Shown: positions 12,032-45,352 of the stretch, piece after piece
Layout of the letters: each line of letters begins with the position of its first letter
How positions within the stretch are numbered: the stretch's first letter is position 1
Origin: Octopus sinensis
Lineage: Eukaryota
Length of the DNA: 64,000 nucleotides
Direction: 5' to 3'
Assembly: GCF_006345805.1 (NCBI RefSeq)
Contig: NC_043011.1
Location: 40,374,464 to 40,438,463, forward strand
Notes under the pieces: generated by a model
Told to the model about the DNA's origin: nothing
The model's input: only the letters and a program-made list of their open reading frames with translations
Databases searched by the model: none
Made by a program: the position numbers and the translations under genes

Positions 12032-12228
12032 CACAAACACACACACTAGCATAGCTAGAGCATGTGTGTGTGTGTATATATATATACATATATATATACA
12101 CACACTAGCATAGCTAGAGTGTGTGTGTGTATATATATATATATACACGCACACTAGAGTGTATGCCACCCAGGGTGGCCTTTCTGTTTGCCTACCCTGG
12201 ACCCCTCAAATGATACAAAAGTGCTGCA

Positions 12229-12794
12229 TTAGGTTGTCTGGAAAGTTCGTGCTGATTTTTAAAGGAAAGAAAAAGCTCAATAAATACTTGCTATTACATT
12301 TTTCATCAACCAAATATGAGCCGTTTTGTTGCACAATGCGCCTCCATCTTTCCTTTAACTTGAAAATACCCTCTTCCCAGAATTGAAGTGGTTTCATGGC
12401 AAAGAATTCATCCAGGTATCTTTTTACATTATCCAAGGAATTGAAATTTTTACCATTAAGACTATTCTGCAGAGACCTGAATAAGTGGAAATCCGAAGGA
12501 GCAATATCTGGTGAATATGGAGGGTGGAGTAACACATCCCAGCTGAGCAGCAGCAATTTTTGTCTGGTTCCCAAAGCATCAAGTGCTGAAAATGAACTTT
12601 CTTATCTTCCATTTTAAAGGGTTACAGAATTAACACAGGTTATTGGAACATAAACCTTCTTCCACAAAAAGATAGCTTAAACTGTGCTCTAAATGGAGGT
12701 GTAGTAAAATCCTATTTTATGGACTCAACCATGTTCTAAAATAAGTCGAAAGGTAAGCTGCTATAAATCGGCATGAACTTTCCGGACAACCCAA
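12229..12794 (-). mobile_element. Internally deleted mariner (DD34D-type) element
   Basis: TIRs ttaggttgtctggaaagttcgtgc / gcatgaactttccggacaacccaa. Transposase N-terminus MEDKKVHFQHLMLW is fused to the C-terminus HPPYSPDIAPSDFHLFRSLQ...KLKERWRRIV. Confidence 0.95.
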
Positions 12795-25058: not shown

Positions 25059-26099
25059 GTGAAATATGAAAAATCAACGAAAATGCACATTGCAAATAAA
25101 AAAAGACTATTTATGACAGGTAACGACAAATATATACATTTAGATTGACTGAGGTAGTAATACGAGTCATAAAAGTCATTATTATGAGATGATTATAAGA
25201 TGATAATAAAGAGAGAGAACAAAACGGACCATGGTTACGCAAAGCTATTCATCGTTTGAAAAACACCGGCTAATATACGGTGTCAGGTCTAATAGTTCAT
25301 GAGAAAAAAGATTATTTGTAAGGGAGGTAAGTAGTTCTGGATTATTTGTAAGGGATGTAAGTAGTTCTGGATTTAGGGATGTGAATGGTGTAGGAAGTGT
25401 ATAAGGGTTAGTGGTTTCAATTGAAGAGTTAGTGGTGTTGTGTATTGAGTTGTGTATTCATATTTAGTTGGGGGAGAAATTTATTGATTAAAAATGCCTC
25501 TTTATTCAACCTTTGTTGCATTGTGGTGTTCTGTGAGCATTGGTAAAAGGGAAATATTTGGAAATTGGGATTAAGATTCCTGGCACACCTTTCTATGTGT
25601 TCACTCACCTTTAACTGTCTGTATTGTGGGTGGCGGATTTTCTCTTTGTGAATGGTGATTCTTTGACGGAGCGAAATTCCTGTTTGTCCCATTAAGAGTT
25701 TACCACATCCTATGCATGTCATGACATAGATTACATTTGCTGAGGCGCAGGTGAAATTTGATTTGATCTTAAATATTTCTCCTTGTTTGAATTGGAATTC
25801 TGAACCCTCCAGAAGGTGGGGGCATGTTCCACAGTTAGAACGTCCAAATTTTGTCACTTTTGGCTCTGTTGTTAGTGGATACAGTCTAGCGCTGGTTAAT
25901 ATTTTTTTCAGTGACTTCGGTTGCTTTTTCTTTTTATAATTTTAAATGAGCTTAAGATTTCGTTCATTGTTTTGTCTGCTGTGAGGATGGGAAGGTTTTG
26001 GGTAATGATGTTGAAGGCTTCGTTGTTTCTGGGGGTTATGTGTGGAAATGTACGGGAGTATTTTTAAGACCCCAGAAACAACGAAGCCTTCAACATCAT
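25050..26099 (-). mobile_element. 5'-truncated Penelope-like retroelement: GIY-YIG endonuclease domain plus 3' terminal repeat
   Basis: ORF 25857-25429 NCGTCPH...FTCASANVIYVMTCIGCGKLLMGQTG..LRQRI..H...VSEH...E...I..F.P.LN is the PLE GIY-YIG pattern; it ends in (TA)n. Confidence 0.9.
25222..25257 (-). ncRNA. Degenerate minimal type-I hammerhead in the PLE terminal repeat
   Basis: AAACG-aUGAAuA-GC-uuu-GC-GuAA-CCAUGG-UC-CGUUU: all three helices are present, with three core substitutions. Confidence 0.55.
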
Positions 26100-29997: not shown

Positions 29998-30384
29998 GGT
30001 TATATCATCAAACCATCACACTACAGGCAGTAAATGATAACAGTCACAACAGAAACGGATTCCAAAGGAGCCTATCTTACCAAATGAGCATATTCTACTC
30101 CAAAGACAAATATCTTATATAAAACCCGGGTTTAAAAGTCTCCAGGAGCAGATCAATGTTAATTTGAAAACTTATTGGGAAATTCAGAAGTGAGACATTG
30201 ATTGAAATAATTTAATCATTAAAGCGTTGTTAATTAAATTATATTTTATAGTAAATATTATTTCTGTTATGAACTGCCTATGGTCACAGACGTTTGCATT
30301 GCACTTCTGTGCGTGCATATGTATACATGTGTGTGTATAAATTTTTGTAAAACATTCATGTATGTGTGTGCATATATACATACG

Positions 30385-31025
30385 CACACAGACACGCGTA
30401 TACACACATGTACGCCCATACACATATATGTATATATACACACACAGACACGCATATACACATGTACGCCCACACACACACATATATGTATATATACACA
30501 CACAGACACGCATATACACACATGTACGCCCACACACACACACATATATGTATATATACACACACAGACACGCATATACACATGTACGCCCACACACACA
30601 CACATATATGTATATATACACACACAGACACGCATATACACATGTACGCCCCACACATACACACATATATGTATATACACACACAGACACGCATACACAC
30701 ATGTACGCCCATACACATATGTATATATACACACACACAGACACGCATATACACATGTACGCCCACACACACACACATATATGTATATATACACACACAG
30801 ACACGCATATACACATGTACGCCCACACACACACACATATATGTATATATACACACACAGACACGCATATACACATGTACGCCCACACACACACACATAT
30901 ATGTATATATACACACACAGACACGCATATACACACATGTACGCCCACACACACACATTTATGTATATATACACACACAGACACGCATATACACACATGT
31001 ACGCCCATACACACATACACATATG
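30385..31025. repeat. ~60-bp minisatellite, about 10 copies, built from compound dinucleotides
   Basis: Unit cacacacacacatatatgtatatatacacacacagacacgcatatacacatgtacgcc. Confidence 0.95.
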
Positions 31026-31324
31026 TATTCATACACACACAACAACATATCATATATATATATATACATGAATGTAAATACACAAACATATGTAGATATA
31101 CAAAATTATGTGTGTATGTGTGTGTGCGTACGTATACGCACGCAAATATATGTATATAAGAACGCTCACGTGAAAATTGCAAACTATAGCCAGTATGATG
31201 ATGAAAAAAAAAAACCCCAAAATTTCTACAACGCTTGCATGGGAATACAAACTAAGACTGCAAGATTGGACAACAATGCAACACTGATGAACGATAAAAA
31301 GGCACAGAATACGAATCCCAACAC

Positions 31325-39687: not shown

Positions 39688-39975
39688 CACGTGACCGACC
39701 AGTCCATCAGATGTAGTTACACATCGCTGGTCACAATGCGTTCGCATTGTTTTAGCGTTCGAATGACGCCACCCCGCTGGCTAAGCGAGCAGGCCAACAG
39801 AAGAAAGAGTGTGAGAAAGAGTGGTGAAAGAGTACAGCAGGGATCACCACCCCCTGCCGGAGCCTCGTGGAGCTTTTAGGTGTTTTCGCTCAATAAACAC
39901 TCACAACGCCCGGTCTGGGAATCGAAACCGCGATCCTACGACCGCGAGTTCACTGCCCTAACCACTGGGCCATTG
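39688..39975 (-). mobile_element. tRNA-Arg-headed SINE (OR-type head) with an alternative 3' part
   Basis: Head caatggcccagtggttagggcagtgaactcgcggtcgtaggatcgcggtttcgattcccagaccgggcg; the 3' half differs from family C and matches 54720-54830. Confidence 0.85.
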
Positions 39976-42900
39976 TTTCGGTGAAAATTTTCGAAAAATT
40001 TTCGGTGAAAATTTTCCAAAGATTTTTGGGTAAAATTTTCGGTGAAAATTTTCGAAAAACTTGCGGAAAATTTTCGGTGAAATTTTTGGGAAAAGTTTTG
40101 GGGAAAATTTTCGAAAAATTTTTGGGGAAAGTTTTCCATGAAAATTTTCGAAAAGTTTTCGGTGAAAATATCTGGTGAAAATTTTCGAAAAATTTTTGGG
40201 TAAAATTTTCGGTGAAAACTTTCGAAAGATTTTTGGGTAAAATTTTCGGTGAAAATTTTCGGTAAATTTTCGAAAAATTTTTGGGAAGAATTTTCGGCAA
40301 AAATCTTTTTAAAAATTTTTGGGAAAATTTTCGGTGAAAATTTTGGAAAAATTTTTGGGTAAAATTTTCTGTGAAAATTTTCGACAACCCATATAACGAA
40401 TATGCTCCATATGCTGAAGTCTATAAAAGTCGATATCGTCATAGTTGTTAAGTGTAAAGCAGAATCTGGTGTATCGGGGATGGTGAGGCATCTTGACTAA
40501 TATTAAACCAGAATTCACTCTATACACAGAAAGCAGCAGCTCGGGGAAAATTTTCGACAAATTTTTGGGTAAAATTTTCGAAAAACTTTTGGGGAAAATT
40601 TTCGGTGAAAATTCTCGAAAAATTTTTGGGTAAAATTTTCGGTGAAAATTTTCGAAACATTTTAGGGTAAAATTTTCGAAAAACTTGGGGAAAATTTTCG
40701 GTGAAAATTTTCGAAAAATTTTTGGGAAAATTTTCGGTGAAAATTTTCGAAAGATTTTACCTGAAAATTTTCGGTGAAAATTTACGTTAAATTTTTGGGG
40801 AAAATTTTGGAAAAACTTTTGGGAAAAATTTTCAAAAAATTACAAAGCCAGCGGTGCCAGAATCTGAAAGTATGGAAGACGAGCGGTGCCAAAATCATAA
40901 AGTATGGAAGCCAGCGATACCAAAATTAAAAAGTATGGAAGGCCAGCGGTGCCAAAATCAAAAAGTATGGAAGGTCAGCGGTGCCAAAATCAAAAAGTAT
41001 GGAAGGCCAGCGGTGCCAAAATCACAAAGTATGGAAGGCCAGGGGGGGCTAAAATCGGTGAAAATCGAAAAATTTTGGGAAAAGTTTTCAGTGAAAATTT
41101 TCGAAAAATTTTTGGAGAAAATTTTTGGTGAAAATTTTCGAAAAATTTTTTGGTAAAATTTTCAGTGAAAATTTTCGAAAAAATTTTAAGGAAAATTTTC
41201 GGCAAAATTTTCTAAAAAATTTTTGGGGAAAATTTTCGGTGAAAATTTTCGAAAAATTTTTTGGGGAAAATTTTCGGTGAAAATTTTCGAAAAATTTTGG
41301 AAAAAATTTTCGGTAAACATTTTCGAAAAAATTTTTGGAGAAAATTTTTGGTGAAAATTTTCGAAAAACTTGGGTAAAATTTTCGAAAACCCATATAACG
41401 AATATGCTCCATATGCTGAAGTCAATAAACGTCGATCACGTCATAGTTATTAAGTGTAAAGCAGAAATTGGGGTATCGGGGATGGTGAGGCATCTTGACT
41501 GTAGTAGAACACCAGAATTGACGCTATATATACACAGAAAGCAGCAGCAGCAGCCACCTAAAACTCTATTTTTAACTATGACATCCATTTTTTGGAAAAA
41601 TTTTCGGTGAAAATTTTGGAAAAACTTTTTGGAGAAAATTTTAGAAAACTTTTTGTTAAAATTTTCATGAAATCCTTCGAAAAATTTTTGGAAAAAATTT
41701 TCGGCAAACATTTTCGAAAAATTTTTGGGGAAAATCTTCGTAAAATTTTTGGGTAAAATTTTCGGTGAAAATTTTCGAAAAATTTTTTGGTAAAATTTTC
41801 AGTGAAAATTTTCGAAAAAATTTTAAGGAAAATTTTCGGCAAAATTTTCTAAAAAGTTTTGGGGAAAATTTTCGGTGAAAATTTTTGAAAAATTTTTGGG
41901 GAAAATTTTCGGTGAAAATTTTCGAAAGATTTTTGCTGAAAATTTTCAGTTAAAATTTTCGGTGAAAACTTTGGAAAAATTTTTGGGGAAAGTTTTTGGT
42001 GAAAATTTTCGAAAACCCATATAACGAATATGCTCCATATGCTGAAGTCAATAAACGTCGATCACGTCATAGTTATTAAGTGTAAAGCAGAAATTGGGGT
42101 ATCGGGGATGGTGAGGCATCTTGACTGTAGTAGAACACCAGAATTGACGCTATATATACACAGAAAGCAGCAGCCACCTAAAACTCTATTTTTAACTATG
42201 ACATCCATTTTTTGGAAAAATTTTCGGTGAAAATTTTGGAAAAACATTTTGGAGAAAATTTTAGAAAACTTTTTGTTAAAATTTTCATGAAATCCTTCGA
42301 AAAATTTTTGGAAAAAATTTTCGGCAAACATTTTCGAAAAATTTTTGGGGAAAATCTTCGTAAAATTTTTGGGTAAAATTTTCGGTGAAAATTTTCGAAA
42401 AAGTTTGGGGAAAATTTTCGGTGAAAATTTTCGAAAAATTTTTTGGGAAAATTTTCACCGAAAATTTTCGAAAAACTTGGGTAAAATTTTCGGTGAAAAC
42501 TGGAAAAATTTTTGGGGAAAGTTTTTGGTGAAAATTTTCGAAAACCCATATAACGAATATGCTCCATATGCTGAAGTCAATAAACGTCGATCACGTCATA
42601 GTTATTAAGTGTAAAGCAGAAATTGGGGTATCGGGGATGGTGAGGCATCTTGACTGTAGTAGAACACCAGTGAAATTTCGGTGAAATTTTTGGGAAAAGT
42701 TTTCCATGAAAATTTTCGAAAAGTTTTCGGTGAAAATATTTGGTGAAAATTTTCGAAAAATTTTTGGGTAAAATTTTCGGTAAATTTTTGGTGAAAATTT
42801 TCGGTAAATTTTCGACAAATTTTTGGGGAGAATTTTCGGCAAAAATTTTCAAAAAATTTTTAGGAAAATTTTCGGTGAAAAGTTTCGAAAAATTTTTGGG

Positions 42901-45352
42901 TAAAATTTTCGGTTAAAATTTTGGAAAGATTTTTGGGTAAAATTTTCGGTGAAAATTTTCGAAAAACTTGGGGAAAATTTTCGGTGAAAATTTTGGAAAA
43001 ATTTTTTGGTAAAATTTTCGGTGAAAATTTTTGGGAAAAGTTTGGGGAAAATTTTCGATGAAAATTTTCGAAAAATTTTTGGGGAAAAGTTTTCCATGAA
43101 AATTTTCGAAAAAGTTTTTGGTGAAAATATTTGGTGAAAATTTTCGAAAAGTTTTGGGTAAAATTTTCGGTGAAAACTTTCGAAAGATTTTTGGGTAAAA
43201 TTTTCGGTGAAAATTTTTGGGTAAAATTTTCGAAAAATGTTTGGTGAAAATTTTCGGTAAATTTCAGCAAAAATTTTCAAAAAATTTTTGGGAAAATTTT
43301 CGGTGAAAATTTTTGGGTAAAATTTTCTGTGAAAATTTTCGGAAACCCATATAACGAATGTGCTCCATATGCTGAAGTCTATAAAAGTCGATATCGTCAT
43401 AGTTGTTAAGTGTAAAGCAGAATCTGGTGTATCGGGGATGGTGAGGCATCTTGACTGTAATATTAAACCAGAATTCACTTTATACACAGAAAGCAGCAGC
43501 AACATAACATCTATTTTTAGCTCGGGGAAAATTTTCGACAAAGTTTTGGGTAAAATTTTCAAAAAATTTTTGGGTAAAATTTTCGGTTAAAATTTTCGAA
43601 AAACTTTTGGGGAAAATTTTGGAAAAATTTTTGGGTAAAATTTTCGGTTAAAATTTTGGAAAGATTTTTGGGTAAAATTTTCGGTGAAAATTTTCGAGAA
43701 ACTTGGGGAAAATTTTCGGTGAAAATTTTGGAAAGATTTTTGGGTAAAATTTTCGGTGAAATTTTTGGGAAAAGTTTTGTGGAAAATTTTCGATGAAAAT
43801 TTTCGAAAAATTTTTGGGGAAAGTTTTCCATGAAAATTATCGAAAAGTTTTTGGTGAAAATATTTGGTGAAAATTTTCGAAAAAGTTTTGGGTAAAATTT
43901 TCGGTGAAAACTTTCGAAAGATTTTTGGGTAAAATTTTCGGTGAAAATTTTGGGTAAATTTTCGAAAAATGTTTGGTGAAAATTTTCGGTAAATTTTCAG
44001 CAAAAATTTTCAAAAAATTTTTGGGAAAATTTTCGGTGAAAATTTTTGGGTAAAATTTTCTGTGAAAATTTTCGGAAACCCATATAACGAATGTGCTCCA
44101 TATGCTGAAGTCTATAAAAGTCGATATCGTCATAGTTGTTAAGTGTAAAGCAGAATCTGGTGTATCGGGGATGGTGAGGCATCTTGACTGTAATATTAAA
44201 CCAGAATTCACTTTATACACAGAAAGCAGCAGCAACATAACATCTATTTTTAGCTCGGGGAAAATTTTCGACAAATTTTTGGGTAAAATTTTCGGTCAAA
44301 ATTTTCGAAAAACTTTTGGGGAAAATTTTCGGTGAAAATTTTCGAAAAATTTCTGGGGAAAATTTTCGGTGAAAATTTTCGAAAGATTTTAGGGTAAAAT
44401 TTTCGGTGAAAATTTTCGAAAAAGTTGGGGAAAATTTTCGGTGAAAATTTTCGAAAAATTTTTGGGTAAAATTTTTGGTGAAAACTTTGGAAAAATTTTT
44501 GGGGAAAGTTTTTGGTGAAAATTTTCGAAAACCCATATAACGAATATGCTCCATATGCTGAAGTCAATAAACGTCGATCACGTCATAGTTATTAAGTGTA
44601 AAGCAGAAATTGGGGTATCGGGGATTTTGAGGCATCTTGACTGTAGTAGAACACCAGAATTGACGCTATACATATACAGAAAGCAGCAGCAGCAGCCACC
44701 TAAAACTCTATTTTTAACTATGACATCTATTTTTTTGAAAAATTTTCGGTGAAAATTTTGGGAAAAGTTTTTGGAGAAAATTTTAGAAAATTTTTTGTTA
44801 AAATTTTCATGAAACCCTTCGAAAAATTTTTGGAAAAAATTTTCGGCAAAAATTTTCGTAAAATTTTTGAAAAATTTCTGGGAAAATCTTCGAAAAATTT
44901 TGGGGGATAACTTTCGTAAAATTTTTGAAAAATTTCTGGGAAAATTTTCGAAAAATTTTTGGGGATAATTTTCTGTGAAAATTTTCGAAAGATTTTTGGG
45001 TAAAATTTTCGGTGAAAATTTTCGAAAAACTTGGGGAAAATTTTCCGTGAAATTTTTGGAAAAGTTTTGGGGAAAATGTTCAGTGAAAATTTTGGAAAAA
45101 TTTTTGGGGAAAGTTTTCCATGAAAATCTTCGAAAAGTTTTTGGTGAAAATATTTGGTGAAAATTTTCGAAAATTTTTTGGGTAAAATTTTCGGTGAAAA
45201 CTTTCGAAAGATTTTTGGGTAAAATTTTCGGTGAAAATTTTGGGTAAATTTTTGGGTAAAATTTTCGGTGAAAATTTTCGAAAACCCATATAACGAATAT
45301 GCTCCATATGCTGAAGTCTATAAAAGTCGATATCGTCATAGTTGTTAAGTGT
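39976..45352 (+). repeat. Composite array: GAAAATTTTC-based spacers with eight co-oriented conserved cores
   Basis: Cores begin aacccatataacgaat at 40386(A), 41388(B), 42014(B), 42543(B, truncated), 43344(A), 44077(A), 44530(B) and 45283(A, truncated). Confidence 0.97.
40846..41045 (+). repeat. 32-bp tandem repeat, 6 copies plus a partial, inside the array
   Basis: Consensus gccagcggtgccaaaatcaaaaagtatggaag. Confidence 0.95.

Follow-up and report, generated by a model that had tools for sequence, protein, structure and literature searches.

What is the 5.4-kb array of co-oriented cassettes and variable spacers found in the genome of Octopus sinensis, where did its sequence come from, and how has it spread? 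The array lies in a 64,000-nucleotide stretch of contig NC_043011.1 (assembly GCF_006345805.1, positions 40,374,464 to 40,438,463), which we refer to as the window. An earlier sequence-only reading had offered three identities for it: an undescribed complex satellite, a tandem array of non-coding RNA (ncRNA) genes, or the internal array of a large mobile element. We find that it is one of dozens of mosaic arrays in this genome that combine a fragment of a viral Rep gene with a spacer repeat built around AAAATTTT, and that it represents a virus-derived composite satellite. The repeated core is almost certainly the leader and codons 1-35 of the Rep gene of a CRESS DNA virus (one with a circular, single-stranded genome that codes for Rep). 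Below, C denotes the Rep-derived core, S the AAAATTTT-type spacer, M a 32-bp minisatellite and N a 22-bp repeat.

The array layout proposed by the sequence-only reading was reproduced. Eight cores, all in one orientation, start at 40388, 41390, 42016, 42545, 43346, 44079, 44532 and 45285, with spacings of 1002, 626, 529, 801, 733, 453 and 753 bp and the subtype order A-B-B-B'-A-A-B-A'. Cores of the same subtype are nearly identical (A5 and A6 differ at 0 of 188 sites, B2 and B3 at 0 of 200), and A and B cores differ from each other at 15 of 155 sites. The two subtype-linked landmarks were found as claimed, the first at 40129, 42697, 43087, 43821 and 45111 and the second at 41651, 42271 and 44793. 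The array is also unique in the window, with GAAAATTTT confined to the 39-45 kb bins and the S repeat occurring nowhere else there. The commonest S unit is present 33 times, with a loose higher period of 24/37 bp, and the same repeat occupies every gap between cores. The first spacer additionally contains the 32-bp minisatellite, which was missing from the earlier inventory (Table 1). On its right side the array terminates within core A'8, abutting host repeat DNA. Its position among host repeats on a 68-Mb contig places it within a host chromosome.

The evidence for a viral origin comes from the cores themselves. On the minus strand, complete cores carry a 35-codon frame that begins MPHHPRY and includes CFTLNNY, corresponding to motif I of Rep. 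We searched the six-frame translation of the window with a profile of 104 environmental Reps, drawn from 150 environmental matches after exclusion of the five closest or partial sequences and of those without motif I. The eight cores were the top eight matches (E 1.9e-6 to 0.22), and the best match in the reversed window reached E 2.3. The core peptide is identical at 22 of 34 residues (65%) to the Rep of a longer insertion elsewhere in the genome (L023), and the nucleotide differences between the two are distributed 11/5/17 over codon positions 1/2/3, with 12 synonymous codons. Taken alone, the core falls under the cut-off of Pfam Viral_Rep (PF02407; E 0.07), a PDB search with its 35 residues returned one chance match (E 2), and the plasmid collection contained no match to it. 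Motifs II and III and the superfamily 3 (SF3) helicase were detected in no core and were seen solely in separate insertions such as L023, and no array region gave a capsid-like match. The earlier statement that the array encodes no credible protein is correct in that no complete protein is present, but it does not apply to the core, which is the minus-strand 5' end of a viral Rep gene. The proposal of tandem ncRNA genes finds no support: all 61 weak Rfam matches stay below the gathering score of their family, and the core derives from the Rep gene. The core leader does not fold, and a sigma-70 promoter scan, a model unsuited to eukaryotic promoters, returned nothing.

Longer insertions of related viruses are present in the same genome. 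A genome search with the Viral_Rep family gave two matches above the cut-off, one of which is L023 (C3:47.24 Mb). L023 contains a 272-aa Rep open reading frame (ORF; 82.5 bits on PF02407) with motif I, HLQG, YCxK and the Walker A/B region; this ORF stops short of its relatives. A 234-aa ORF with an arginine-rich start and no Pfam match lies downstream on the same strand, from which we infer a capsid gene, as we do for the other ORFs called capsid-like here; the two genes span 215-1770. A candidate origin stem (~1865-1890) and an 86-nt near-perfect palindrome (1915-2000; z -12.9) are also found in L023. The L023 Rep matches solved circovirus-type Reps (7LAR being the Rep of porcine circovirus 2 (PCV2), according to the accessible part of PMC10288648). 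Among named viruses, Dragonfly larvae associated circular virus-10 comes closest to this Rep (40% over residues 8-270), with motif I, HLQG, YCxK and Walker A aligned; the relation is a distant one, and the window core has motif I alone. Outside this genome, Rep relatives comprise one viral contig at 41% and, in metagenomes, 79 loci at 27-48%. In Octopus vulgaris, the C-terminal half of a closely related Rep (86%) is annotated as a 'hypothetical protein' (CAI9729859.1). L047 (C16:4.80 Mb, 25-2340) is an ambisense CRESS insertion of slightly over unit length, with opposed Rep and capsid-like genes, both broken, and a duplicated intergenic region carrying TAGTATTAC in a 9-bp stem. The places listed in the genome include at least 10 that bear Rep and at least 4 that are capsid-like. 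Further Rep or capsid-like remnants, 40-88% identical to the L023 proteins, occur in L024, L048, L049, L051-L055, L057 and L059, and their sequences point to several independent integrations.

The array in the window belongs to a large family. All 150 scored candidates for the core peptide match (223 were found), and they are located on 10 large and 6 small contigs, so that the check on chromosomal distribution suggested earlier reveals a dispersed family. Among 84 regions chosen from search hits, which makes all counts lower bounds, 36 contain a total of 192 cores longer than 50 bp. All 192 stop at or before codon ~35, and in 139 of 143 cases the truncation point runs straight on into S. Since the truncation is shared and almost always abuts S, the family was likely founded by a single truncation-fusion event. 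We delimited 76 array spans with a median length of 2.1 kb and a maximum of 13.4 kb, comprising 28 M+S, 26 C+M+S, 10 C+S, 8 S and 4 M spans; C or M is present in both orientations in 21 of them. The arrays mix five or six repeat modules, including M (97 exact 35-bp matches across the genome; control 0), N (202 exact 45-bp matches), a 9-bp repeat and a 10-11-bp repeat. The identification as an undescribed complex satellite agrees with this anatomy, and the family is dispersed genome-wide, with 'undescribed' meaning that the open-access texts searched contain no description. As to the modules, N reaches up to 9 kb and is itself dispersed, and together with the 9-bp repeat it joins S/M/core arrays in L080, L090, L100, L101, L104, L110 and L136-L145; the word GGTGCC is common to N and M. 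The host flanks of L078 (1600-1860 and 7840-8000) are inverted copies of each other, and the M blocks of L078 and L088 form repeated large inverted pairs.

The sequence-only reading had suggested that the core is the constrained unit, an interpretation that finds no support at the protein level. Taken over 102 near-full cores of 17 regions, the divergence from the commonest base of each column is 6.6/5.6/5.9% at codon positions 1/2/3 and 10% in the leader. The ratio of non-synonymous to synonymous polymorphism (pN/pS) comes to 0.88 when copies are counted and to 0.82 when distinct variants are, in a column-wise count that registers shared ancestry repeatedly. Frames are open in 68 of 131 full-span cores, and the B cores of the window stop at codon 24. 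The cores evolve near-neutrally. Core identity is 89% within regions and 86% between them, the nearest neighbour lies in the same region for 62 of 102 cores, and the core tree is star-like with a largely unresolved base, placing the A and B cores of the window in separate starred clades. Cores of L092 (C15:34.27 Mb) and L094 (C15:43.58 Mb) match the B cores of the window with up to 99% identity, and those of L093 (36.42 Mb) with 97.5%; the window A cores are 96-99% identical to cores of L042 (C8:7.78 Mb) and L092. Both lineages co-occur in L092 and L094, on the same chromosome.

Near-identity within subtypes results from recent duplication. The A5/A6 pair was generated by the recent internal duplication given in Table 1, and the B2/B3 pair by a second one (41068-41927 against 41706-42543, 92%). 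Differences within these duplicate pairs amount to 0-3% in the cores and to 0.4-6% in the spacers, which also show small indels; sequencing error could account for some of these. The proposed contrast between fixed cores and elastic spacers is retained to the extent that spacers change somewhat faster in these pairs, as slippage would give. Because duplicated blocks are inherited together, the spacers only appear to follow a higher-order grammar: the landmarks travelled with the blocks.

We then considered whether the arrays could be part of a transposable element. Across 48 loci, array ends scored by eye are ragged and fall within any module. No fixed termini, terminal inverted repeats (TIRs) or coding partner were found at these loci, nor a general target-site duplication (TSD), the longest flank-shared repeat averaging 6.3 against 5.8 in mismatched pairs. 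These results give no support to the internal array of a large mobile element, and the arrays likewise lack the hallmarks of TIR transposons, MITEs (miniature transposable elements with inverted repeats) and foldback elements, namely terminal inverted repeats and a constant TSD. An automated search for empty sites was usable for 1 of 49 regions. Three insertions, with junctions placed by hand, lie in repeats resembling short interspersed nuclear elements (SINEs), the intact copies of which served as empty-site proxies. One target shows a 14-bp duplication (20 of 21 SINE-like copies), whereas 57-66 bp were lost at the second and 22 bp at the third (29 of 34 SINE-like copies). In principle, a rolling-circle transposon, Helitron-like or of another type, could have picked up the Rep fragment together with minisatellites, leaving the arrays as its cargo or as what erosion has spared of it; this would account for the lack of TSDs at most sites, the carried flanks, the tandem arrays and the clustering on the same chromosome. 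We consider this improbable, given that the 48 end pairs share no conserved terminus, that the readable targets suffered deletions as well as the duplication, and that most arrays are surrounded by no common flanking element or transposase ORF.

Stretches of host DNA that flank L085 are found again next to arrays in five other regions, namely L068 (1547 bp, 86%), L084, L074, L040-41 and L099-118. L101 (4600-4985) and L104 (4565-4945) have in common a 380-bp inserted hairpin element beside the core leader, with long terminal inverted repeats and TA-rich ends, which we take to be MITE-like. SINE pieces are repeated inside array units in L094-95. Pieces of ribosomal DNA (rDNA) occur at array junctions in L066, L092 and L143 among 96 regions, and likewise in L165, where the N-18S junction of L143 recurs on a second chromosome. 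Since host flanks and inserted elements are common to several loci, the arrays appear to have been copied from chromosomal donors, as the close match of the window cores to those of L042 and L092-L094 also suggests. The lack of a general TSD, the mixed target changes, the spans with modules in both orientations and the rDNA at junctions are what we read as a signature of break repair. We therefore lean towards a model in which the family spreads as non-coding DNA, without a transposase, through break-repair or template-switch copying from existing chromosomal arrays. In this model, a virus of the host would have integrated or left a defective molecule, and the 5' end of its Rep gene would have been joined once to the S repeat. 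The palindromic, slippage-prone S repeat and the other minisatellites could then allow polymerases to switch templates between arrays; alternatively, double-strand breaks may be filled with extrachromosomal array pieces. Host DNA next to the arrays, and rDNA, would be carried along during copying, and unequal exchange and slippage would subsequently extend each array and reshuffle its spacers, with the core as a passenger without a protein role. As for the source of the modules, an origin of S, M and N in the rDNA spacer was rejected, as eight rDNA-bearing regions contain no M, background levels of S and a single N array (abutting 18S in L165), in a test limited by the possible absence of a full-length spacer from the assembly. 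An origin of S, M or the core leader in the intergenic DNA of the longer insertions was rejected as well, with alignment scores within the shuffled range; the TATA-like and ACTACTA tracts common to the leader and viral intergenic DNA were noted by eye only.

Several points weigh against break-repair or template-switch copying as the mode of spread, or against the numbers on which it draws. No copying intermediate (circle, concatemer or new insertion) was observed, and the mechanism is read from end products. No founder locus joining a longer Rep to S turned up, and for the source of S, M and N, alignments with viral intergenic DNA did no better than shuffled sequence. Helitron rolling-circle transposition would likewise be expected to leave transduced flanks, tandem arrays and clusters on one chromosome. 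Readable empty-site proxies were available at 3 of 48 loci, and the pN/pS values inherit the repeated counting noted above. The regions are no random sample, and three pairs are near-identical including their flanks (95-100%; L064/L090, L062/L119 and L116/L117), being haplotype or segmental duplicates in the assembly. Finally, no contig piece bridging the right junction of the window array was among those inspected, a minority of all pieces.

A different route would be viral rather than chromosomal: the arrays could be integrated concatemers of defective or satellite CRESS replicons, with viral Rep acting in trans to multiply them by rolling-circle replication. Such replicons would have kept the Rep promoter end, with filler replacing the rest, and would have integrated repeatedly or still be hopping with the help of Rep. 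This would suit the head-to-tail units of core plus filler (450-1000 bp), the one shared truncation, the many open basal forks of the star-like tree and the repeated infection shown by the Rep-bearing and capsid-like remnants, and a similar idea is discussed for plant endogenous geminiviral repeats in the part of PMC5014472 available to us. We nevertheless regard it as unlikely, though the strongest of the competitors. The cores retain no viral origin hairpin (a nonanucleotide in a stem-loop). The one candidate, TAATATTAC, lies before the ATG in only 20 of 150 cores, all in one nested A clade, and it makes no stem (folding z 0.66, whereas the L047 origin gives -3.25). The longer viral insertions of the genome contain neither S nor M, S, M and N arrays are absent from all 79 metagenomic Rep contigs, and the M pattern was not found in viral or metagenome contigs. 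Moreover, 40 of the 76 spans are core-free, and the shared host flanks and inserted elements show chromosomal donors. It is doubtful that this animal genome hosts non-coding rolling-circle parasites, derived from a defective CRESS virus, consisting of Rep promoter ends in arrays with filler, amplified by viral Rep in trans and reintegrating at breaks together with rDNA; if true, they would provide a living link between single-stranded DNA (ssDNA) viruses, satellites and HUH transposons.

The arrays might also be maintained by the host as antiviral templates from which small RNAs, or a short Rep peptide, directed at related viruses are made. What the arrays have kept of Rep is its leader and start, the inverted copies in 21 of 76 spans could yield double-stranded RNA, and small interfering RNAs (siRNAs) are reported from tandem endogenous geminiviral repeats in yam (PMC5014472, in the portion available). 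However, codon evolution is near-neutral with many stops and frameshifts, over half of the spans contain no viral sequence, and such a function would be a use of the arrays and not a mode of spread. We consider this explanation very unlikely.

Public sequencing data contain the array in part as well. Pieces of it are present in 13 of 24 listed public sequencing runs (9 studies), and no RNA run is among the listed runs that contain it. The core is covered by contigs in four runs that bear four different organism labels, and X3 and X7 show S-type loose ends where the core is truncated; one of these four runs, X1, may be the assembly's own sample. The host repeat on the left side of the array (Table 1) is presumably SINE-like at its head. 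Elsewhere in the window, a 60-bp minisatellite (30375-31041; 11.3 copies, 90% matches) bears no relation to the array. A minus-strand reading frame at 12209-12601 contains HPPYSPDIAPSDFHLF and resembles a mariner transposase remnant. A further minus-strand frame, at 25432-25941, resembles the GIY-YIG end of a Penelope-like element.

Table 1. Features of the mosaic array and its surroundings. Positions refer to the window unless a locus is named.
Feature	Position	Strand	Description
Left flank	39700..39975	-	Interspersed host repeat outside the array; 24 matches in other fetched loci
Whole mosaic array	39976..45352	.	S spacers, one M block and eight Rep-derived cores
First S spacer	39976..40387	+	11-13-bp units around the palindrome AAAATTTT
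Core A1	40387..40491	-	Rep codons 1-35, open; E 1.4e-5 (environmental Rep profile); leader with TATA-like tract to ~40548
32-bp minisatellite (M module)	40847..41042	+	6.2 copies
Core B2	41389..41493	-	Rep codons 1-35, stop at codon 24; leader to ~41590
Core B3	42015..42119	-	Near-exact duplicate of B2; leader to ~42210
Core B'4	42544..42648	-	Rep codons 1-35, stop at codon 24; leader ends abruptly at ~42671
Internal duplication	42790..44531	+	42790-43809 against 43524-44531, 92% over 1026 bp
Core A5	43345..43449	-	Rep codons 1-35, open, motif I CFTLNNY; 22/34 residues as in the L023 Rep; E 1.9e-6; leader to ~43528
Core A6	44078..44182	-	Identical duplicate of A5; leader to ~44261
Core B7	44531..44635	-	Rep codons 1-35, stop at codon 24; leader to ~44732
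Core A'8	45285..45352	-	Codons ~13-35 only; E 0.22
rDNA fragments	L066 5137-5361; L092 6069-6160; L143 5584-5793; L165 5027; L116 1560-2661		Inside, abutting or ~1.2 kb from arrays

The findings bear on several aspects of virus and genome evolution: (i) Origin of satellites. A satellite-like repeat can be traced to the start of a viral gene, and the genome also holds parent-type insertions, so that a datable founder could serve as the starting point for following how a satellite is born and spreads. (ii) Range of hosts. Amplified repeats of ssDNA viruses, previously known from plants only in the literature searched, namely geminivirus-related DNA (GRD) and endogenous geminiviral (EGV) repeats, are extended to an animal. 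(iii) Fossil record of infection. The Rep remnants, the near-complete ambisense genome with its origin and the Rep half of O. vulgaris are fossil evidence of CRESS virus infection in the octopus lineage. (iv) Movement without a transposase. The arrays form a natural record of repeats moving between loci, and a virus-derived small-RNA defence in cephalopods becomes directly testable.

The octopus family resembles several known systems and differs from each. Like the general class of dispersed complex satellites and minisatellite networks, it has tandem units, higher-order duplications and slippage at many loci, but it includes the start of a viral gene and brings five or six unrelated modules together. 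PMC6011040, in the part available to us, does not mention viruses. With Replitrons and Helitrons it shares the tie between eukaryotic mobile DNA and Rep HUH endonucleases, as well as fuzzy ends and carried flanks. Helitrons have a fixed 5' TC and a 3' hairpin-CTRR, whereas the 48 octopus end pairs fall anywhere, as judged by eye and without motif statistics. The transposase of Replitrons lacks a helicase, and short direct repeats mark their termini, as described in the accessible text of PMC10288648, whereas the parent-type octopus Rep has a helicase (Walker A/B region) and a capsid-like neighbour, and the arrays show neither fixed termini nor an excess of terminal repeats. Endogenous CRESS elements of bivalves and gastropods are Rep-derived and listed at 1-4 for each mollusc genome (PMC6069186, in the part available, whose main text contains neither 'octopus' nor 'cephalopod'). 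The octopus fragment differs from such invertebrate elements in its amplification to at least 192 copies. Neither a describing paper nor an animal equivalent was found in the main texts of CC-licensed PMC and bioRxiv articles searched, supplements and repeat libraries aside.

The nearest described case is that of the GRD repeats of Nicotiana, which the octopus family resembles in behaving as a fossil repeat. As in GRD and in EGV1 of yam, the octopus arrays contain direct repeats of a truncated, degenerate 5' part of an ssDNA-virus rep gene together with upstream DNA. According to the available portion of PMC5014472, GRD evolves neutrally, has kept an origin-like fragment and is located on one or two chromosomes. 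By contrast, the octopus arrays lack an origin hairpin, reside in an animal host and are distributed over 10 large and 6 small contigs. Their Rep derives from an unclassified circovirus-like CRESS virus instead of a geminivirus, and their cores are embedded in several minisatellite modules.

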